IMG/VR virus record: IMGVR_UViG_3300029585_000037
Coordinates: 29,935-93,934 of that record
DNA from: a virus
Reading direction: 5' to 3' (one strand)
DNA: 64,000 nt
Shown: one piece after another, positions 2,977 to 34,358 of the stretch
How the letters are laid out: every line of letters begins with the position of its first letter
Position numbering within the stretch: position 1 is the stretch's first letter
The notes under the pieces: generated by a model
Told to the model about the DNA's origin: nothing
The model's input: the letters and a program-made list of their open reading frames with translations, nothing else
The model's database searches: none
Position numbers and translations under genes: made by a program

Positions 2977-5304
2977 ATGAGTAACGTACAAATGCAAGAC
3001 TTCAATTTCATCAGTAAGTACTCCCACTACTTGCCAGAGGTCGACAAAAAAGAAACATGGGAACAGAGCATCGATAGGATTTACAATATGCATATGATAA
3101 AATATGCTGACGAGATGACTCCAGAATTAGAAAGTCTAATTGAAAAAGCAAAACAAGCTGAAAAAGAACGTAAGGTGTTATCAGCTCAAAGAGTTAGGCA
3201 GTTTGCTGGAGTAGGTATTCTAAGGAATAATTGTAAATTATATAATTGTGCATCATCCTATGTAGATAGAGTGCAATTCTTTCCAGAAATAATGTGGGTT
3301 CTGCTTTGCGGTGCAGGTGCAGGATTTAGTATTCAAAACAAACATATAAGTCAATTGCCTGAAGCTCATGATGTAGGTAATGATAAATTCTATTATACAA
3401 TAGAAGATAGCATTGAAGGGTGGGCACATGCAATAGGTTATCTGGTAAACTCTTATATGAAAGATGAAAACTCAGAGTACCACGCTGCATATGGTAAAAC
3501 AGTAGTGTTTGATTATAGTCTAATTAGACCTGCTGGAGCATTAATTGCAGGACAATTCAAAGCACCTGGACCAGATGGACTTAGAAATTCTATTGAAAAG
3601 ATAAGAAGTATATTTGAAAAGGCAGTAGGTGGAAATAAGAAGTCGAGACAGTTATTCAGTATCGAAATTTATGATATTACGATGTGGATAGCTGATGCTG
3701 TTTTAAGTGGTGGCGTAAGACGTAGTGCAACCATATGTATATTCTCAATCGATGATGAGGATATGATGAAAGCTAAGACAGGGAATTGGTTTAATGAAAA
3801 TCCTCAAAGACGTTTGTCTAACAATTCAGCTGCTCTGATAAGAGGCAAGGCTACTAAGGAACAATTTTTAGACATATTTAATTCTATTAAGGAATTTGGC
3901 GAGCCAGGATTTGTATTTACACCAAATGAAGATATTACATATAATCCTTGTGTAGAGATAGGTAAAAGACCTCAAACAGAAGATGGGCGATCAGGATGGC
4001 AATTCTGTAATTTAACTGAAGGTAATGGACGTTATTGTGATACTCCAGAGAAATTCTATGAAGTATGTGAAGCATCTGCGATTATAGGAACTTTACAAGC
4101 TGGATATGATAAATTTTCATTCCTTGGAGAAATAACAGAAGAGATAGTTGCACGTGAAGCCTTACTTGGAGTGTCTATTACAGGATGGATGATGAATCCA
4201 GATGTATTATTTGATAAAGAAGTGTTGAAAAAAGGTGCTAATATAGTTAAGGAAACAAACGCAAGAGTTGCTGATATAATAGGTATTAGACATGCTGCAA
4301 GAACTACTTGTACAAAGCCTGCAGGCAACAGTTCAATTCTATTAGCTACATCTTCAGGAATACATGGAGACCATTCACCGAGATATATCAGACGTATTCA
4401 AGTTAATAAAGACGAAACAGCTGGACAAGTTTATGCTGAAACTAATCCTTTCGCAGTAGAGCAGTCTGTATGGAAACACACTGATAATATCGTATCTTTT
4501 GCAATAAAATCTACAGGTGGAGCTAAATTTAAAAAAGAACTTGTAGGAATAGAACAATTAGAATATGTTAAGCATGCACAAAAGTACTGGGTTGAAGAGG
4601 GTACTCGACAAGAATTATGTGTTGATCCAGAGACCAGACATAATATATCTAATACAATACAAGTAGCTCATGACGGATGGGATAAGGTAGCAGATTATGT
4701 TTGGGAAAACAAAGATTATTTCGCTGGTATTAGTTTCTTGGCAGCTTCAGGTGACTTAGATTATCCTCAAGCTCCATTTAGTCAAGTGCTAACTCCAGAA
4801 GAGATGGTGAAAGAGTATGGGTCAGGTGTAGTCCTTGCTTCAGGTTTAATCGTAGATGGTTTAAAAGCCTTTGAAAATAATCTTTGGACTGCTTGCGACT
4901 ATGGATTAGGTCGTATGAAGTTAGAATTCAACAAAGAGAAAGCAATAGAACTTATTTCAAATAATACAAGAGACAATGACAATGGAGATATTTTCTTCAG
5001 CTACATGATAGAGGGTGTTATGGTTACTGATATAAATGCTGTTATTGGTCATGTAAAGAATAAGTATGATGAAAAGATAGATTGGGTAAGACGTTTCCAG
5101 AAATTCGCTAAGTCTTATTTAGATGGAGATTTACAAAGAACTGCATATTGTTTAAAACATGTATCATTATGGCATTCTTGGTGTAAGCTAAGAAATGAGA
5201 TGAAAGAAGTGGATTGGAACAGCGTTAGTTTTAAAGATGACTACATCGCATCTGCTGCAGATAATGTAGCTACAGCTTGTGCAGGTGGAGCTTGTGAAAT
5301 TTAA
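2977..5304 (+). CDS. nrdJ: ribonucleotide reductase, class II-like (adenosylcobalamin-type, NrdJ-like)
   Basis: 775 aa; active-site-like YNPCVEI and FCNLTE motifs; C-terminal Cys cluster ACAGGACEI; no glycyl-radical motif. The class assignment is by motif memory only. Confidence 0.75.
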   Translation: MSNVQMQDFNFISKYSHYLPEVDKKETWEQSIDRIYNMHMIKYADEMTPELESLIEKAKQAEKERKVLSAQRVRQFAGVGILRNNCKLYNCASSYVDRVQFFPEIMWVLLCGAGAGFSIQNKHISQLPEAHDVGNDKFYYTIEDSIEGWAHAIGYLVNSYMKDENSEYHAAYGKTVVFDYSLIRPAGALIAGQFKAPGPDGLRNSIEKIRSIFEKAVGGNKKSRQLFSIEIYDITMWIADAVLSGGVRRSATICIFSIDDEDMMKAKTGNWFNENPQRRLSNNSAALIRGKATKEQFLDIFNSIKEFGEPGFVFTPNEDITYNPCVEIGKRPQTEDGRSGWQFCNLTEGNGRYCDTPEKFYEVCEASAIIGTLQAGYDKFSFLGEITEEIVAREALLGVSITGWMMNPDVLFDKEVLKKGANIVKETNARVADIIGIRHAARTTCTKPAGNSSILLATSSGIHGDHSPRYIRRIQVNKDETAGQVYAETNPFAVEQSVWKHTDNIVSFAIKSTGGAKFKKELVGIEQLEYVKHAQKYWVEEGTRQELCVDPETRHNISNTIQVAHDGWDKVADYVWENKDYFAGISFLAASGDLDYPQAPFSQVLTPEEMVKEYGSGVVLASGLIVDGLKAFENNLWTACDYGLGRMKLEFNKEKAIELISNNTRDNDNGDIFFSYMIEGVMVTDINAVIGHVKNKYDEKIDWVRRFQKFAKSYLDGDLQRTAYCLKHVSLWHSWCKLRNEMKEVDWNSVSFKDDYIASAADNVATACAGGACEI

Positions 5305-5326: not shown

Positions 5327-5767
5327 ATGTCACAAAAAGTAAGAGTAGTAGCTGAGAATGGAGTTCAGTTACCTAAGTATGAAACAGAAGCATCTGCTGG
5401 TATGGATGTGAGAGCAAATATCACCGAGCCAGTAGTATTAGAGTCGATGGAAAGAGCACTCATTAAAACTGGTTTGTCTATTGAATTACCAGTAGGTATG
5501 GAGTGTCAAGTAAGACCAAGAAGTGGTTTAGCCTATAAGCAAGGAATTACTGTATTAAATGCTCCAGGCACTATTGATGCAGATTATAGAGGTGAAATTG
5601 GTGTAATTCTTGTTAACCTATCTAATGAGAATGTAACTATACACCCTAATGACAGAATAGCTCAATTAGTATTCGCTAAGCATGAAAGAATACATTGGAT
5701 ATCAGCTACAGAGTTATCTGAAACAGAACGTGGCTCTGGTGGTTTTGGTTCTACTGGTAAGTCATAA
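5327..5767 (+). CDS. dut: dUTP diphosphatase (trimeric dUTPase)
   Basis: All five dUTPase motifs: [44 protein letters not shown]. Confidence 0.92.
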
Positions 5768-6507: not shown

Positions 6508-6540
6508 TCTAACTTTAGATTGATTAATAGCTCAATCGTT

Positions 6541-6612
6541 TCTACATTAGCTCAGTAGGTAGAGCAACAGAGACTAATCTGTAGGTCACTGGTTCGAGTC
6601 CAGTATGTAGAT
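6541..6612 (+). tRNA. tRNA-like gene with a non-canonical anticodon arm (anticodon not assignable)
   Basis: Acceptor stem TCTACAT/ATGTAGA; D arm GCTC-AGTAGGTA-GAGC; T arm ACTGG-TTCGAGT-CCAGT; 5-nt variable loop. The anticodon stem ACAGA/TCTGT encloses only 6 nt (GACTAA, 6572-6577). Confidence 0.7.
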
Positions 6613-6635: not shown

Positions 6636-6981
6636 GGGGGTGCTTGGTTTTGACAGGTACGAAATTTAAAACAATTAGTCAAGGTATATGGTTGTGAATA
6701 CCTTTAAAATTCCATCTAAATTTTAAATGGCAAAGTTTTAACAATGCCTTCTATGAATGCTCCGATGAGAGCAGCTGCCTAATAGGTTCATAGACGAGTG
6801 ACGACTACTTTGGAACAGAAAGTCGTAAGTTGTGCAGTTTGTCTATTCTGCCTATAAAGATAGTCTGGTGGAGTCATTCAGTTGACCTTATCTTGGACAG
6901 ATGTAAAATGTATCCTATGACTATGAATAAATTGTTTTGAGTGGACTATTTTGGACGGCAGTTCGACTCTGCCCACCTCCA
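6636..6981 (+). ncRNA. ssrA: tmRNA (SsrA), one-piece, CCA not encoded
   Basis: 5' GGGGGTG pairs with 3' CACCTCC plus discriminator A, including a G3:U pair; 5' GGGGGTGCTTGGTTTTGACAGG resembles E. coli GGGGCUGAUUCUGGAUUCGACGGG; T arm GGACGGCAGTTCGACTCTGCC; internal tag ORF ends GCA GCT GCC TAA TAG (6771-6785). Confidence 0.9.
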
Positions 6982-7052
6982 CGAAAATCCAACCGATAGG
7001 TAAGGTATTACTCAATACCGAACTGACTGCGGATAGGGTCAATAGGAGTTGC

Positions 7053-7194
7053 TTTTGGGTGAAGTGACACGGAGTTTGTTAGACTTATATAACATGATGC
7101 ATCGCTGCGCACCGTATTTGACGCTGCCAAAAAATCATGGGAGATTAATGGCTTGTCTTTCAAACTCCAACCCACCTATTGTTAACACCCAAAA
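7053..7194 (+). ncRNA. candidate structured RNA (nested helices) between the tmRNA and the next CDS
   Basis: Properly nested pairings: TTTTGGGTG (7053-7061)/CACCCAAAA (7186-7194); GGAGTTTG (7071-7078)/CAAACTCC (7161-7168); AGAC (7081-7084)/GTCT (7155-7158); CATGAT (7093-7098)/ATCATG (7134-7139). Locally GC-enriched. Confidence 0.35.
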
Positions 7195-7202
7195 TTCATA
7201 TT

Positions 7203-7451
7203 ATGTTAACAGAAACAGAACTTCAAGCGACTTTAGAAAAACAATCTAATGATGAATTAGACCTTTATCAGAGAATGATGGAGATAATAAAAAGTTGTGT
7301 AGTACAAGAACACTGTGATACTGCAAAGAAAATGTTAGACCAAATTTCTAACACTAATGAGAATTTAGCAGCAGCGTTAATGTATCCATTAAGGCTTAAA
7401 AGAAGAGCCATAAGAAATATGAATCCAGAAATAAAGTATGAAGAAAGCTAA
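7203..7451 (+). CDS. hypothetical protein (82 aa)
   Basis: First ATG at 7203 (MLTETELQ...); the track start at 7179 is a TTG inside the proposed RNA helix. Confidence 0.55.
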   Translation: MLTETELQATLEKQSNDELDLYQRMMEIIKSCVVQEHCDTAKKMLDQISNTNENLAAALMYPLRLKRRAIRNMNPEIKYEES

Positions 7452-8067
7452 ATACATTATCTTAGATTGCGAGACAGGTGGTTTAAGTCCTCAAGAAAAT
7501 CCAATAACACAAATAGCGTTACTAACTATTGATAATACCTTAAAAGAAGTAGAACGCTTTGAAACTTTCATAAAGCCTTATGATGATTTGAAAATAACCA
7601 AAGGTGCTTTAGATGCAACAGGGTTGTCCATGGCTGATATAAATTCAGGAATATCGAATAAACAAGCTGTAAAAGTTTTAATAGATTATTTCAAAAAAGC
7701 TAAGGGTGGAAGTCATGCTTCATTAAAACCTGTAGTTGTAGGTCATAATGTACAATTTGATACTGGATTTTTAGAATACTTATTCCAGTCAGCTAATGAT
7801 GATTTTTGGAAATATGTTAATCCTACTACTGTAGATACTATGGTACTCACTAAGATGTTTAATCCTACTATATCAAGCCTAAAATTAGGTATATGTTGTG
7901 AAGAAGTAGGTATTGATCTTCCAGATGCACATAAAGCTATGAATGATGTTATAGCAACTACAGATTTATTCAGAGTATATATAAACAAATTAAGAGATGC
8001 TGGAGATGTGACAGTATCTAATTCTAACAATGATAAACCTAAATCAAGGGTAAAATTCCAATTTTAA
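7438..8067 (+). CDS. DEDDh 3'-5' exonuclease (DnaQ/epsilon-like)
   Basis: Exo I ILDCETGG, Exo II VGHNVQFDTGFL, Exo III HKAMNDVIAT. Confidence 0.85.
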   Translation: MKKAKYIILDCETGGLSPQENPITQIALLTIDNTLKEVERFETFIKPYDDLKITKGALDATGLSMADINSGISNKQAVKVLIDYFKKAKGGSHASLKPVVVGHNVQFDTGFLEYLFQSANDDFWKYVNPTTVDTMVLTKMFNPTISSLKLGICCEEVGIDLPDAHKAMNDVIATTDLFRVYINKLRDAGDVTVSNSNNDKPKSRVKFQF

Positions 8068-8069
8068 TT

Positions 8070-8816
8070 ATGTCTAAAAAAGAAAATGATAAGGTAACCA
8101 AAGACGTACCACAAACGTCAACGAGCAACCAGAAAAATGACCAACCTACTGATAAAGAGGTTCAAGAGAAAGTAATGAAGCGTGTGGATGAGATAGTCCA
8201 AGAGAAACAAGAAGAGGCAGATGCTAATTTTAAGTTTCTAATGATAGGTGGAAATGTACCTGAACTATCAGAATCAATTTTAGCCTTAGCAGAAGCATCA
8301 GATCATCAAATTTCTGTATTTGAATTAGATAATAGTGAAATGTCTTTTATAACTAAGAGCCGAAGTGAAAAAAGAGCAGAAGAGTCAGCTGTAGATTTTC
8401 TGAAAGATGAAAAGAATATACAACATGCTAAACAGCAGTGTATAGAAATTAAGAAGATATACTATGGTGATAAGGTTGAAAATCCTGAAGAGATTGAAGG
8501 CTGGATGGACAAAAGACGTTTAAAAAAGAAAGTTAATGCGAGTTGGAAACAATTAGATAGCTTATTACAACATTTAGACTTATTTGGTATGGTTAAATGG
8601 GATACTGATAATCGACATAGATTTGATGTTACAATTGATCCAAATTTAATCATTAATAATAAAGTAAATGAGCTTGAACAACTATTAAATTTAGCGAAAG
8701 GTAAAATACTTGCTTTGTATGATGACAGAAGTCAAATGTCAGATGAGTCAAAGAAAGTATTAACGAGCCTTAAACGCAAATTTAATACGGACAGAGAATG
8801 GAACTTGAAACATTAG
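8070..8816 (+). CDS. hypothetical protein (248 aa); small terminase candidate by position only
   Basis: Immediately upstream of, and overlapping, the large terminase gene; no motif recognised. Confidence 0.5.
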   Translation: MSKKENDKVTKDVPQTSTSNQKNDQPTDKEVQEKVMKRVDEIVQEKQEEADANFKFLMIGGNVPELSESILALAEASDHQISVFELDNSEMSFITKSRSEKRAEESAVDFLKDEKNIQHAKQQCIEIKKIYYGDKVENPEEIEGWMDKRRLKKKVNASWKQLDSLLQHLDLFGMVKWDTDNRHRFDVTIDPNLIINNKVNELEQLLNLAKGKILALYDDRSQMSDESKKVLTSLKRKFNTDREWNLKH

Positions 8817-10471
8817 ATTATAGGGTACTCGACAAATTTGATAATGCCTTTTCAGTTGAAAAACTTGGAGAGGCATTTCGTATTTTAGATGAGATTATCG
8901 ATGGATTAGATGAATATGGAATGCGTGAGCTTTTAGGTGGTAGAACTGCCGATATTGATAAAGTTTATGCAGTTCTATTAGAAGAGATACTAAAGGTACT
9001 TTACGGACAAGAAAATCAGATAGATGAAAAATTAGGCTATTTCGACCATCTTACAGACAACATAGAGAATGTATTATGTACAGAAAATCTTACATATTTT
9101 ATCATTTCTAAGATACCAGAATTTGAACTAAACTGGCATCACTTAGAATGGGGAGACATAGCTCAAAGATACGATAAATTTAACATAATTGCAGCACGTG
9201 ACCATGGTAAGAGTTTCTACTGGAGTAATGCTTATCCAATATGGAAGATGTGGAGATATCAGTCAGCAAACAATGCACGTAAAGACTTAAAATTATGTAA
9301 AAAAGGATTTATGTTTTCATTTTCTCAAGAACAGGCAATAGACCTCTTAGAGATTATGAAAAATACAATAGAAGATAATGATAGTTTACGTGAAAGGCTA
9401 TTTCCAGGCAAAGGTGATGGTTGGGCAAAAACAGAGATAGTTTGTAAGAATGGAGCCAGAATGAAAACAAAAGGTTTTGGATCATCTGTACGTGGAGCTC
9501 ACCCTGGATATATAATAGTAGATGATGGTTTAAAAGATAATGTAATTTACAGTTCAGTACAACGTAAGAAGTCTATAGATTATTTTCATGCGGTGATTAT
9601 GAATATGATTGTTCCTAAAGGACAAGTTGCTGTTGTAGGTACTCCATTTCACTCTAATGATTTATATGGAGATTTGAAGAGTAAAACAGGTTGGCATGTT
9701 CGTGAATATCCAGCTATATTTCCAGATGGTAAAATACTATGGCGTGAGCGTTGGGGTTTTAAGGAACTTTTAGACAAACGTGAAACGCAAGGTAATTTAA
9801 TATTCTCAAGAGAAAATCTTGTAAAACCTGTAACAAATGAAAGTACGATATTTCCAGATGAGGTTATCAGAAGAGCCTATGTTGGAATGCAAGATTATAC
9901 ATTTAGTCATAGTAGAGATGGGTTTAAGATGAAATTCGATAGAGTTGTAACAGCTGTCGATTTTAGTATATCATCTTCAGTTGGAGCCGATTATACTGTA
10001 ATCATGACTGCTGGAGTAGATGATAAAGATAACATTTGGCTGATGAACATTACCAGATTTAAAGGTAAGAAGTTTGCTGAGCAAATGGCTGTAATGAAAC
10101 AGATAAATACAGCTTTTAAGCCTGATGTAATGATGATGGAAGATAACGTATTCCAACAGATATTTGTTCAAGAAAGTGATCGAGCAGGACTACCAGTTCA
10201 AGGTCATACGACTGGTAAGAATAAATACGACTTAAAAGCTGGTTTGCCAGGATTAGCAATACTTTTTGAACGTGGTAAGATTAGAATACCAAGAGGTGAT
10301 CAAAACTCAATAGATATGAGTGATTTATTAGCTTCAGAGTTATCGAGTGTAACTTGGACTGAAAAAGGATTAGAGGGTGTTGGGGAACACGATGATATGG
10401 CGATGTGTATGTGGATACTATCTTTAGCTGCCAAGAAACTAACTACTGGATTCAGTTTTAAATTCTTATAA
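8798..10471 (+). CDS. terL: terminase large subunit
   Basis: 557 aa; Walker A-like AARDHGKS; Walker B GYIIVDD; coupling motif VGTPFH; C-terminal nuclease-like region with acidic residues (VTAVDFS, MMMEDN, EHDDMAM). Confidence 0.85.
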   Translation: MELETLDYRVLDKFDNAFSVEKLGEAFRILDEIIDGLDEYGMRELLGGRTADIDKVYAVLLEEILKVLYGQENQIDEKLGYFDHLTDNIENVLCTENLTYFIISKIPEFELNWHHLEWGDIAQRYDKFNIIAARDHGKSFYWSNAYPIWKMWRYQSANNARKDLKLCKKGFMFSFSQEQAIDLLEIMKNTIEDNDSLRERLFPGKGDGWAKTEIVCKNGARMKTKGFGSSVRGAHPGYIIVDDGLKDNVIYSSVQRKKSIDYFHAVIMNMIVPKGQVAVVGTPFHSNDLYGDLKSKTGWHVREYPAIFPDGKILWRERWGFKELLDKRETQGNLIFSRENLVKPVTNESTIFPDEVIRRAYVGMQDYTFSHSRDGFKMKFDRVVTAVDFSISSSVGADYTVIMTAGVDDKDNIWLMNITRFKGKKFAEQMAVMKQINTAFKPDVMMMEDNVFQQIFVQESDRAGLPVQGHTTGKNKYDLKAGLPGLAILFERGKIRIPRGDQNSIDMSDLLASELSSVTWTEKGLEGVGEHDDMAMCMWILSLAAKKLTTGFSFKFL

Positions 10472-10472
10472 A

Positions 10473-11045
10473 ATGAAAGTATATAATTTTCCATCTAAAT
10501 TTCTATTTCAAACAAAAGTAGAAAATCATAAGGAACTTAAAAATCAACTTTTTGATAAGATAATAGATTTATCAAAAAAGAATGAAAAAGAATATAAACA
10601 AAATCATGATACTTGGGATTGTAAAGTATTAACAAGTTTCTTTGATCCAGACTCAGCTGTTATATTTAATGAAAATCCTGATTTGTATGATGCTATTTGG
10701 AAAGCGTTTGATGAAATGTTAGGTAATGTAATTTTAAATTCTAAAGTGCCAAAAAGTAAGCTAAATAGAATATGGTTTAATCTTTACAAAAAAGGATATA
10801 ACCAAGAGGTACACCAGCATTGTGGTAGTGATTTTTCAGGAGTTTATATATTACATTGCACAGAGCCTAACAAGACAGTATTCTATTCAAATGAAAATCA
10901 TAGATTGCTAAATAAGACATTAAAAACAGAAGATGTAGAAGAGGGTACTATATTATTATTTCCATCTCATCTATCTCATTATGTAAATGAAATACAAGAT
11001 GAATTAAGAGTTACAGTAGCTTTTAATATCACTTGCGAAGTTTAA
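10473..11045 (+). CDS. 2OG-Fe(II) oxygenase-like protein
   Basis: VHQHCGSDFSGVYIL ... LLFPSHLSHYV pattern recalled from the small phage/cyanophage 2OG-Fe(II) oxygenase family; not searched. Confidence 0.5.
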   Translation: MKVYNFPSKFLFQTKVENHKELKNQLFDKIIDLSKKNEKEYKQNHDTWDCKVLTSFFDPDSAVIFNENPDLYDAIWKAFDEMLGNVILNSKVPKSKLNRIWFNLYKKGYNQEVHQHCGSDFSGVYILHCTEPNKTVFYSNENHRLLNKTLKTEDVEEGTILLFPSHLSHYVNEIQDELRVTVAFNITCEV

Positions 11046-32864: not shown

Positions 32865-34358
32865 ATGACACCAGGATTAAATTTAGCCGATTATGCTAAA
32901 CAAGCCGTGAATAACGGACAGTCGCAGTTGATCGGTGGTTCGTCTATGCAAGAATTGAACCAATTAAACAAAGCGTTGGAAGCTGGGCAAATCACTGGCC
33001 GTGAGACTACTGATTTATCCACTGCTTCTGGTGCTCCTTTGAAAGTTGAGAGTCTTGACAAGACCTTAAAACATTTGACTTTCAAGGAAAGTGACATTGT
33101 ACTTTGGAAAAACATTCCAAAGAAGTCTGCCTATAACACTGTAGAAGAGTACAACCAATTAGTTGATTACGGTCAACAAAGAGGTGGTTTCTACAATGAA
33201 GGTGAATTACCTAATGAAGAGGACTCAACGTATGTAAGACGTGCTCAGTTAGTTAAGTTTATGGGAGTAGTGAAGTCTGTGACTCACCCTATGACCTTAG
33301 TTAACACGCATGTTGGAAATGCTATTGAGCGTGAAGTTAAGAATGGAACTATGTGGATTTTACGCCAATTGAACCGTTCTTTATACTTTGGTGATGAAAC
33401 TCTTGTACCTCAAGAATTTAATGGCTTTTTAGCTCAACATCAAAAGAACTCTGGTTATACAGACCTTGATGCCTACTTCAATTCAGAAGTTGTAATAGAC
33501 CTTAGAGGTCAGGCACTTTCAGAAGATGCTATTGAAGATGCAGCGAATGGAATTGTACAAAACTTTGGTTTAGGTACTCAATTATTTGCTCCACCAAAAG
33601 TATTATCTGATTTTGTTAAGAATTTCTATGGTAATAAATTTATCAATCCTAATACTAATCAGACTTCTGCTGGTATTATGGGTCAAAGAGTTCAAGCCTT
33701 TGATTCTCAATTCGGTAGAATTGGTTTAAATTGGGATATATTCTTTAACAAAAAAGCACCTAAGCGTTCTACTGCTGGTTCTACTTCACCTATGGCACCT
33801 CAGCCTGTAGTTACTGGAGCAGTTACGCCAGTTGGAGTAGATGCTTCATCTGCTTGGAATGCTGATGATGCTGCTGATTATATCTATGCTGTTTCTGCTG
33901 TTAATAGATATGGAGAAAGTTCTTTAACAATACTTGGAGGTGGAAACCCTGCTACTGTTGTAGCTGGTGGTTCAGTAGATTTAGCCTTTACAGATGGTGG
34001 AGGTATCAATCCTGCAACAGCTTACCAAGTATATCGTTCAAATAAGAATGCTGCTACTGCTGCAGCTGCTACTTTCTATCCTGTTTATACAGTTTCTAAA
34101 CAAGAACAAGTAGATGGGTATGATGGTGCTGCTGCTGGAACTGTGCGTGATCGTAACAGATGGATGCCAGACTCTGATCAAGCTATCCTTTTCCAAATGG
34201 ACAATGAAGTAATTGAATTTGCTCAACTTGCTCCACTTATGAAAATGGATTTAGCTATCTTATCACCAGCGTATAGATTTATGGTACTATTATATGGTAC
34301 TCCTTTCTTATATGCTCCTAAAAAGATGGTTAGAATAGTAAACATCGGTAAACTTTAG
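32865..34358 (+). CDS. major capsid protein
   Basis: 497 aa directly after the protease/scaffold gene; visibly higher GC and biased codons; has its own upstream motif and a strong terminator; Ala/Gly/Thr-rich. Confidence 0.75.
   Translation: MTPGLNLADYAKQAVNNGQSQLIGGSSMQELNQLNKALEAGQITGRETTDLSTASGAPLKVESLDKTLKHLTFKESDIVLWKNIPKKSAYNTVEEYNQLVDYGQQRGGFYNEGELPNEEDSTYVRRAQLVKFMGVVKSVTHPMTLVNTHVGNAIEREVKNGTMWILRQLNRSLYFGDETLVPQEFNGFLAQHQKNSGYTDLDAYFNSEVVIDLRGQALSEDAIEDAANGIVQNFGLGTQLFAPPKVLSDFVKNFYGNKFINPNTNQTSAGIMGQRVQAFDSQFGRIGLNWDIFFNKKAPKRSTAGSTSPMAPQPVVTGAVTPVGVDASSAWNADDAADYIYAVSAVNRYGESSLTILGGGNPATVVAGGSVDLAFTDGGGINPATAYQVYRSNKNAATAAAATFYPVYTVSKQEQVDGYDGAAAGTVRDRNRWMPDSDQAILFQMDNEVIEFAQLAPLMKMDLAILSPAYRFMVLLYGTPFLYAPKKMVRIVNIGKL

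Follow-up and report, generated by a model that had tools for sequence, protein, structure and literature searches.

The window, by which we mean the whole stretch of 64,000 nucleotides (nt) of viral DNA analysed here, bears a one-piece gene for transfer-messenger RNA (tmRNA; ssrA) at positions 6636-6981 of the + strand; the mature RNA has 346 nt before CCA addition and ends at the discriminator A. An earlier note, prepared from the sequence alone, had proposed a full-length tmRNA at this very place and suggested that its fold be checked with a covariance model. The Rfam model RF00023 matched positions 6636-6984 with 67.5 bits (gathering score 47) and an E value of 3.8e-24 over all 64 kb of the window, and the match extended from end to end of the model (positions 1-374 of 374), far above chance expectation. 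Just one other Rfam match, a tRNA at 6541-6612, was obtained in the window. The acceptor stem comprises 7 bp, in which the 5' strand GGGGGUG (6636-6642, +) pairs with CACCUCC (6974-6980) of the 3' strand, which occupies 6974-6981 (+) together with the discriminator A; the third pair is G:U. The GACAGG block is located at 6652-6657 (+), and the T arm GGCAG-UUCGACU-CUGCC at 6957-6973 (+) is preceded by GGAC (6953-6973 as a whole), which gives the GUUCGAnUC-type loop after GGAC that is expected of a tmRNA. CCA is absent from the DNA of the gene, CGA being found directly after discriminator A6981. All these elements had been read in the same way in the earlier note.

A related phage, L007, carries a homologue of the gene at the corresponding site (positions 2268-2632, after a tRNA; 56.6 bits in Rfam). 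The terminase of L007 is 81% identical to that of the window, and the two tmRNAs show 83% identity (mean column identity in the alignment). When a tmRNA-type structure, consisting of the acceptor stem, helix 2, the pseudoknot PK1, a post-tag helix with its inner hairpin, and the T arm, was superimposed on the pairwise alignment, all 58 modelled pairs were found to form in both RNAs, and 10 of them had changed on both sides (three in the T arm, three in helix 2, three in stem 2 of PK1 and one in the post-tag helix). In controls with the 3' partners slid by 1-3 columns, 0-1 two-sided changes and about 45-51% pairing were obtained. In the acceptor stem, 7/7 pairs form in both phages and none varies, while in the T arm three of the five pairs have undergone compensatory double changes (GAGGG/CCCUC in L007). 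Helix 2, formed by a 5' strand at 6664-6680 (+) and a 3' strand at 6919-6942 (+), has 16 pairs, three of them compensatory, and connects the tRNA-like and mRNA-like domains, as it should in a tmRNA.

The pseudoknot PK1 (6681-6718, +) has the usual topology, with the strands in the order S1a-S2a-S1b-S2b. Its stem S1 is formed by AAGGU (6681-6685) and ACCUU (6700-6704), the five pairs of which are all invariant and so uninformative, and its stem S2 by 6689-6699 and 6709-6718 (9 pairs, 3 compensatory). In the modelled structure, an extension of helix 2 over part of PK1 S1 may compete with the latter. A second, H-type pseudoknot (6792-6851, +) is composed of the post-tag helix, 6792-6798 with 6838-6844 (one compensatory pair), which encloses the inner hairpin at 6801-6826, and of a 4-bp stem between GCAG (6834-6837) and CUGC (6848-6851); the latter is replaced in L007 by GUAU/AUAC, with the same geometry and two compensatory pairs. 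The expected place of the pseudoknots PK3 and PK4 is a variable 3' region of 67 nt (6852-6918, +), which contains indels and is 22 nt longer in L007. An exhaustive listing of helices for the two sequences proved too noisy in this AT-rich RNA beyond the top helices. Taken together, the covariance model and the compensatory changes against the homologue support the identification of the sequence as a full-length one-piece tmRNA. At the sequence level the gene passes all the tests for a one-piece tmRNA that were applied, save for the full downstream pseudoknot set and the heuristics of the ARAGORN program.

Two other identities were considered for the gene and rejected. The model of permuted two-piece tmRNAs (Rfam RF04321, tmRNA_permuted) gave 16.1 bits against a gathering score of 47 and matched the 3' end alone, and the gene is colinear. 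Nor is it a phage attP fragment of a host ssrA, which would comprise only the 3' part and adjoin an integrase: the whole length is present, including the 5' half, PK1 and a tag, and no integrase was found among the open reading frames (ORFs) of the window that were tested.

PK1 is followed by a single-stranded leader of 10 nt, AAUUUUAAAU (6719-6728, +), which is the same in L007 and separates PK1 from a GGC codon at nucleotide 94 of the tmRNA. There begins a frame of 17 codons with no start codon, GGC...GCC followed by UAA UAG (6729-6785, +), which encodes GKVLTMPSMNAPMRAAA; over the 20 nt of leader and first codons (AAAUUUUAAAU-GGC-AAA-GUU), the window and L007 do not differ. Several arguments point to GGC as the resume codon. 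U6724 and A6725, at -5 and -4 relative to it, match U85 and A86 of the E. coli tmRNA, which determine the frame there, A86 being the main determinant and U85A causing misframing (PMC2481249). Moreover, GGC lies 10 nt past PK1, the Rfam alignment sets the consensus resume codon on it, and the ssrA tag of Bacteroides, GETNYALAA, also opens with Gly encoded by the resume codon (bioRxiv 10.1101/2025.03.18.644028). Seventeen codons in the same frame encode the tag of L007, GKVINMMPSTRIAAIAA, and a UAA stop comes next. In comparison with the window, this tag has gained one codon before the retained AUG-CCU-UCU block and lost one after it, so the frame has been kept across codon-sized indels. In the +1 frame, the tags would be AKF* in the window and AKL* in L007, and the +2 frame has no Ala-Ala end and no stop common to both; from these sequences, resumption in either of these frames seems unlikely. 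Thus, both the internal frame and the 17-residue tag starting at GGC, as put forward in the earlier note, stood up to this comparison. With the alanine carried on the RNA, the appended peptide would be AGKVLTMPSMNAPMRAAA.

Both tags close with Ala-Ala and a stop. They share the GKV start, the MPS block and the C-terminal AA, and their middle part is poorly conserved; the antepenultimate residue is Ala in the window and Ile in L007, not Leu. The unusualness of the tag had been overstated in the earlier note, since the usual Ala-Ala end is kept.

The replicon in which this gene resides is supported by its gene content as an uncultured, virulent-looking phage of about 94 kb. The window has 30% G+C, and its ORFs of at least 120 aa are nearly all on the + strand. 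A class II-like (B12-type) ribonucleotide reductase (2977-5304), a dUTPase (5327-5767), a DEDDh exonuclease (7438-8067) and the large terminase (8798-10471) are all encoded within 4 kb of the tmRNA, the major capsid protein is encoded at 32865-34358, and genes of baseplate proteins, a DnaB-like helicase and an amidase are also present. Judging from these neighbours, the tmRNA is part of the phage genome itself rather than a bacterial ssrA beside a prophage, in agreement with the statement of the earlier note that it is phage-encoded. The window comes from a metagenome contig of the JGI that measures 93,934 bp. Hundreds of relatives of the terminase are known from metagenomic contigs of about 96-100 kb, and the best matches of the terminase among isolates are those of the Bacteroides phages DAC19, DAC20 and DAC22 (36% identity), which makes a host in Bacteroidota plausible. 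The reductase and the dUTPase belong to a cluster of nucleotide-metabolism genes together with a dCMP deaminase (400-1005) and a 2OG-Fe(II) oxygenase (10473-11045). Genes of the HMUDK_hel and TAGT families occur in the relatives L001, L007 and L010, a hint that phages of this family have modified bases in their DNA.

Upstream of the tmRNA, at a distance of 23 nt, there is a tRNA-like gene (6541-6612, +), which scored 57 bits with the tRNA model of Rfam and was reported by ARAGORN as 'tRNA-???'. The two genes probably form one transcription unit. Copies of the tRNA-like gene were found in L001 (4264-4338), L007 (2076-2149) and L115 (3168-3241). Its anticodon loop is abnormal: it has 6 nt (GACUAA) in the window, and 7 nt (CAACUAA) with A instead of U at position 33 in the three other phages, in which ARAGORN assigned it to tRNA-Ser(ACU), yet the long variable arm of tRNA-Ser is absent. 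The acceptor and T stems covary among the four phages, which indicates that the tRNA-like molecule is under selection. The CUA triplet in its loop brought up the idea of a recoded TAG, which is unsupported, as ORFs of the standard code tile the window densely. Directly 5' of the tRNA-like gene, a motif CTGATTGATTAATAGC...TCAATCGTT is conserved in all four phages (6508-6540 in the window); GATTGA within it is able to pair with TCAATC, and the motif may be a promoter, a terminator or a processing element. A scan of the window for sigma-70 promoters and terminators gave no more sites than shuffled sequence did. On the other side of the tmRNA lies a gene-free spacer of 218 nt (6985-7202, +), with the next ORF at 7203-7451. 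It has 41% G+C versus 30% in the genome and folds somewhat more stably than its shuffles (z = -2.4 for the minimum free energy); no Rfam match and no similarity to the relatives was found for it.

The tmRNA is patchily distributed among related phages. In L001, whose terminase is 88% identical to that of the window, the tRNA-like gene is followed by an unrelated spacer of 130 nt and there is no tmRNA. In L115, in which the downstream 82-aa ORF is 73% identical, a GIY-YIG endonuclease ORF follows the tRNA-like gene; this ORF (3250-3855), encoding a homing-endonuclease-like protein of 201 aa, occupies the slot of the tmRNA. As far as these gene orders tell, the site downstream of the tRNA-like gene is a hotspot of gene exchange. 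A terminase 96% identical to that of the window is encoded by L006, a short contig from the same sample as L115 which ends before the tmRNA locus. Among the closest relatives the tmRNA is accessory: two of the four that were compared have it (in total, five phage lineages). No tmRNA was found in four more distant relatives (L003, L005, L009 and L010). Further members of the subfamily, sought by means of terminase and neighbour-gene homologues, were only L007 and L008, besides L116, the contig from which the window itself derives. A terminase-based search for the locus in IMG/VR revealed no relatives, DNA similarity searches of 50,697 isolate phage records gave no match to the locus or to the tmRNA, and there was no match to the exact 3'-end pattern of the tmRNA in IMG/VR or to two gapped subfamily patterns in metagenome contigs of the JGI. 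An 18-mer from the resume region had eight matches in IMG/VR, each a chance match within protein-coding sequence.

We consider it likely, at a probability of roughly 80%, that the gene is a functional one-piece ssrA, carried by the phage as an accessory gene and relying on the alanyl-tRNA synthetase (AlaRS), SmpB, EF-Tu, CCA-adding enzyme and proteases of the host, which provides extra ribosome rescue during infection. The architecture of the RNA, its compensatory conservation, the reading frame and the phage context were observed directly; expression of the tmRNA, its charging, SmpB binding, tagging and proteolysis we infer from sequence. Transcription of the RNA would accompany, or directly follow, that of the tRNA-like gene lying 23 nt upstream, and host enzymes would process the transcript and trim its 3' end to the discriminator A. 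As CCA is not encoded, it would be supplied by the CCA-adding enzyme of the host, and host AlaRS would then charge the RNA with alanine, using G3:U as the identity element. The charged molecule would presumably bind host SmpB. No smpB was found in the window, which covers 64 kb of the about 94-kb genome: none of the 30 ORFs scanned with Pfam, including every ORF of 120-248 aa, matched the SmpB family, and tblastn with E. coli SmpB gave nothing below E = 1. The complex would enter ribosomes stalled on broken or stop-less mRNAs, translation would resume at GGC (6729), and after addition of (A)GKVLTMPSMNAPMRAAA it would stop at UAA, freeing the ribosome, while the Ala-Ala C-terminus would mark the product for host proteases. 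The likely benefit would be more rescue capacity at times of infection when more ribosomes stall owing to decay of host mRNAs, shut-off of transcription or defences that cut RNA. For a hybrid phage in E. coli, it was demonstrated that formation of plaques needs the release of ribosomes by tmRNA, and not correct tagging (PMC2481249).

Several observations speak against this interpretation. The first is that ARAGORN, the use of which the earlier note had recommended, did not call the window gene either by default or with the threshold lowered to 40%, and its sole output of the tmRNA type was a spurious call on the opposite strand. The homologue from L007 was missed as well, so this tmRNA subfamily escapes annotation by ARAGORN; recognition by this program is, however, a criterion of annotation and not of biology. 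The second concerns the 3' part of the RNA. The earlier note had also recommended inspection of the pseudoknots PK1-PK4, and while PK1 and the second pseudoknot at 6792-6851 were found, comparison of the window with L007 revealed no conserved fold in the last 67 nt, the PK3/PK4 region 6852-6918; the Rfam alignment across PK2-PK4 contains many non-canonical pairs with low posterior probabilities. Moreover, the covariation rests on two sequences, because only one close homologue exists, and the structure tested was derived from the same two. Finally, the tmRNA is dispensable, as L001, the closest relative with data, is without it and L115 has the GIY-YIG ORF instead.

The tag, and what it may do for the phage, can be viewed against a wider set of tmRNAs sharing the 5' end of the window gene. 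The motif GGGGGUGnnUGGnUUUGACAGG was found on 92 IMG/VR contigs (loci L012-L103), and at just 11 places among 185,579 bacterial/archaeal species, each represented by one genome. The viral status of the 92 contigs is that given by IMG/VR; at two loci that were spot-checked, PHROG matches were few and no gene was clearly a bacterial housekeeping gene. The one-piece tmRNAs from these contigs (about 50 distinct) have tags of 21-38 residues, nearly all ending in xAA, and most of the extracted genes fall into a few groups, within which the tags (for example DVELSTMTFEDAMAFVGADYAVAA and GKNNSRVVALGANAQIEANMNKVFSLLREEVAVAA) are strongly conserved. Internal tag positions are conserved too, and some of the conserved residues are encoded by more than one codon. 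In all one-piece relatives with a derivable tag (52 distinct sequences), the frame straight after UAAAU/UAAAC gives a hydrophobic C-terminus, with Ala-Ala in nearly all; a few of them have leader variants (UAAUU, UAGAC or CAAAC). ARAGORN calls most of these viral-contig tmRNAs, and it gave an identical tag for the first group (DVELSTMTFEDAMAFVGADYAVAA) and the same frame for the second (GKNNSRVVALGANAQIEANMNKVFSLLREEVAVAA). Outside their ends, they are about 55-63% identical to the window tmRNA, and their gene surroundings are unrelated, no neighbourhood being common to them and the window. The discriminator is followed by CC in just 16 of 88 tmRNAs with this 5' end, i.e. CCA is mostly not encoded in them, as had been noted for the window gene. 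A representative of the viral group with 24-residue tags gave no blastn match among the 50,697 isolate phage records, and a full-text search of the literature on phage tmRNAs found no paper describing the GGGGGUGnnUGGnUUUGACAGG group.

Among the 11 places in species genomes, real-looking tmRNAs were found in a Bacteroidetes metagenome-assembled genome (MAG), in one genome each of Gracilibacteria and Cloacimonadota and, as a permuted gene, in Sunxiuqinia indica. The Bacteroidetes gene (L104, 2076-2490 of the MAG contig JAAGZN010000174.1) is a canonical tmRNA with the same 5' end (160.8 bits in Rfam), and its contig is genuinely bacterial, with a methionyl-tRNA synthetase gene adjoining the tmRNA and glycosyltransferase genes. 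The tag encoded there, DKKIELMPKVMPGFAPAMPFALAA, has 24 residues, is Met/Pro-rich and bears a loose likeness to ...MPSMNAPM...AA of the window; by sequence, the lineage of L104 may be the bacterial source of the phage tmRNA gene. Permuted two-piece tmRNAs with the same 5' motif occur in IMG/VR at L017, L023, L031, L032, L050, L053, L075, L098 and L101, and such genes have short tags, e.g. GEQVEMAMAA. The permuted gene of Sunxiuqinia indica, a cultured member of Bacteroidota, lies beside tRNA genes (L105, 4766-4983, - strand) and scored 75.8 bits with the tmRNA_permuted model of Rfam.

A different fate of tagged products, as considered in the earlier note, is speculative. In this reading, trans-translation with so long a tag would provide more than a degron of the host type and direct the tagged chains to a fate useful for the phage, such as escape from the host adaptor or protease, changed turnover, or recognition by a phage factor. 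The window tag is about twice as long as that of Bacteroides, its antepenultimate residue is Ala (Ile in L007) rather than Leu, and the tags of the viral contigs, longer still, are conserved inside even where the codons differ. Nevertheless, we find such a role unlikely for the window tmRNA, as the middle of the tag is poorly conserved between GKVLTMPSMNAPMRAAA and GKVINMMPSTRIAAIAA, a pattern which suits a degron better, and no candidate phage partner was identified. Equally doubtful is a broader proposal, according to which the window gene belongs to a virus-enriched group of tmRNAs with GGGGGUG/CACCUCC, whose tags (17-38 residues) would have evolved for a phage-specific purpose, and which would move as cassettes into tRNA-adjacent hotspots, alternating there with homing endonucleases.

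The patchy presence of the gene among the four closest relatives, with the slot empty in one and taken by a homing endonuclease in another, would also be expected if a horizontally acquired ssrA were a neutral or decaying passenger of a variable tRNA-side hotspot, in the course of being lost. The modest Rfam score, the failure of ARAGORN and the variable 3' pseudoknot region are in line with this. On the other hand, 10 pairs have changed in a compensatory manner and none is broken between phages whose terminases are 19% apart, which points to purifying selection on the fold; the frame, length and stop of the tag are preserved, and the acceptor stem, leader and T loop are intact. We therefore regard a decaying gene as quite improbable. 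A decoy RNA that sequesters SmpB, EF-Tu or AlaRS of the host, and so inhibits trans-translation there rather than performing it, would have a precedent in mycobacteriophage DS6A, which carries little beyond the tRNA-like domain; RNAs of this kind are inhibitors of tmRNA and may act by titration of SmpB (PMC4131195). The lack of a detectable phage smpB in the window would fit such a decoy as well. However, a tRNA-like domain would suffice for this purpose, whereas the window gene keeps PK1, the leader, the resume codon, the 17-codon frame and the stops, and this makes a decoy very hard to accept. Resumption one base later, at GCA, with a three-residue tag (AKF in the window, AKL in L007), would use the Ala codon that is the resume codon in E. 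coli (PMC2481249) and would meet an in-frame UAA after three codons in both phages, but it can hardly be credited, as it places A and not U at -5, the U85A-type context of misframing in E. coli (PMC2481249), as the Rfam consensus resume codon falls on GGC, as only the GGC frame gives Ala-Ala in both phages and equal length across the indels, and as the 52 one-piece relatives acquire their hydrophobic tag ends from the frame directly after the leader, on which ARAGORN agrees.

With this gene, a tmRNA becomes known from a large uncultured family of about 95-100 kb phages, distant kin of Bacteroides phages, for whose members in the isolate phage collection no tmRNA copy was detected. Existing knowledge of tmRNA is unchanged by it. 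In practical terms, a covariance model finds here a phage tmRNA that ARAGORN misses. Pharokka relies on ARAGORN for tmRNA calls. Because ARAGORN can miss real tmRNAs, the published frequencies of these genes in phages may be underestimates. Its patchy presence among close relatives amounts to a natural experiment on the advantage that a phage draws from a ribosome-rescue RNA of its own. Worth more than the window gene itself is the finding that the GGGGGUGnnUGGnUUUGACAGG 5' end is met far more often on viral contigs, with very long tags in the one-piece genes there, and this would merit a separate study.

Phage tmRNA genes were reported in 402 of 18,146 isolate phage genomes (2.3%), with 133 distinct sequences (PMC9004378); they are known from eight Bxz1-type mycobacteriophages and Bacillus phage G (PMC4131195), and huge phages carry them too, some together with SmpB (PMC7162821). 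A phage tmRNA is thus an already known kind of accessory gene, as the earlier note had itself indicated by citing Bxz1, and the novelty of the window gene was overstated there. The closest precedent is offered by Bxz1 and other cluster C mycobacteriophages, in which, as in the window, a one-piece tmRNA with a long tag is encoded on a lytic phage genome beside tRNA genes. We re-derived the Bxz1 gene with ARAGORN (NC_004687, 100059-100493); its 25-residue tag, ATDTDATVTDAEIEAFFAEEAAALV, ends in ALV and, like that of the window, departs from the LAA of E. coli (PMC4131195). Bxz1 thus provides a phage precedent for the long tag, the non-LAA end and the tRNA-adjacent place at once, and, with tags of 21-38 residues on the viral contigs, the length and end of the window tag are less unusual than had been claimed. 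The Bxz1 tmRNA differs in its size (435 nt versus 346 nt), in the phylum of the host (Actinobacteria), in its place within a cluster of about 26 tRNA genes, where the window gene lies by a single odd tRNA, and in being detected by ARAGORN; in the blastn search of the isolate phages, Bxz1 included, the window tmRNA had no match.

With the bacterial SsrA RNAs of E. coli and Bacteroides (RF00023), the window tmRNA shares the acceptor stem with G3:U, the T arm, helix 2, PK1, the U-A leader and the Ala-Ala end of the tag, and with Bacteroides also the Gly resume codon. It differs from them in the tag of 17 residues versus 9-10, in Ala in place of the bacterial Leu at the antepenultimate position, in being phage-borne, in not encoding CCA and in lacking a recognisable PK3/PK4; its Rfam score is 67.5 bits, in comparison with 160.8 bits for the bacterial gene L104 from Bacteroidetes. 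The viral-contig tmRNAs with GGGGGUGnnUGGnUUUGACAGG have an identical acceptor-stem sequence, UAAAU/UAAAC before the resume codon and long xAA tags, as has the window gene, although their tags are longer and of other sequences. Marine phages such as the OM43 phage Melnitz also carry an ssrA, which was proposed to sustain hijacked translation (PMC9004378), but these tmRNAs are of the permuted two-piece type, whereas the window gene is not permuted and has no riboswitch. The mini-tmRNA of mycobacteriophage DS6A is likewise phage-borne and derived from ssrA, and consists of the tRNA-like domain only (PMC4131195), whereas the window gene possesses a complete mRNA-like domain with PK1, the tag frame and the stop codons.

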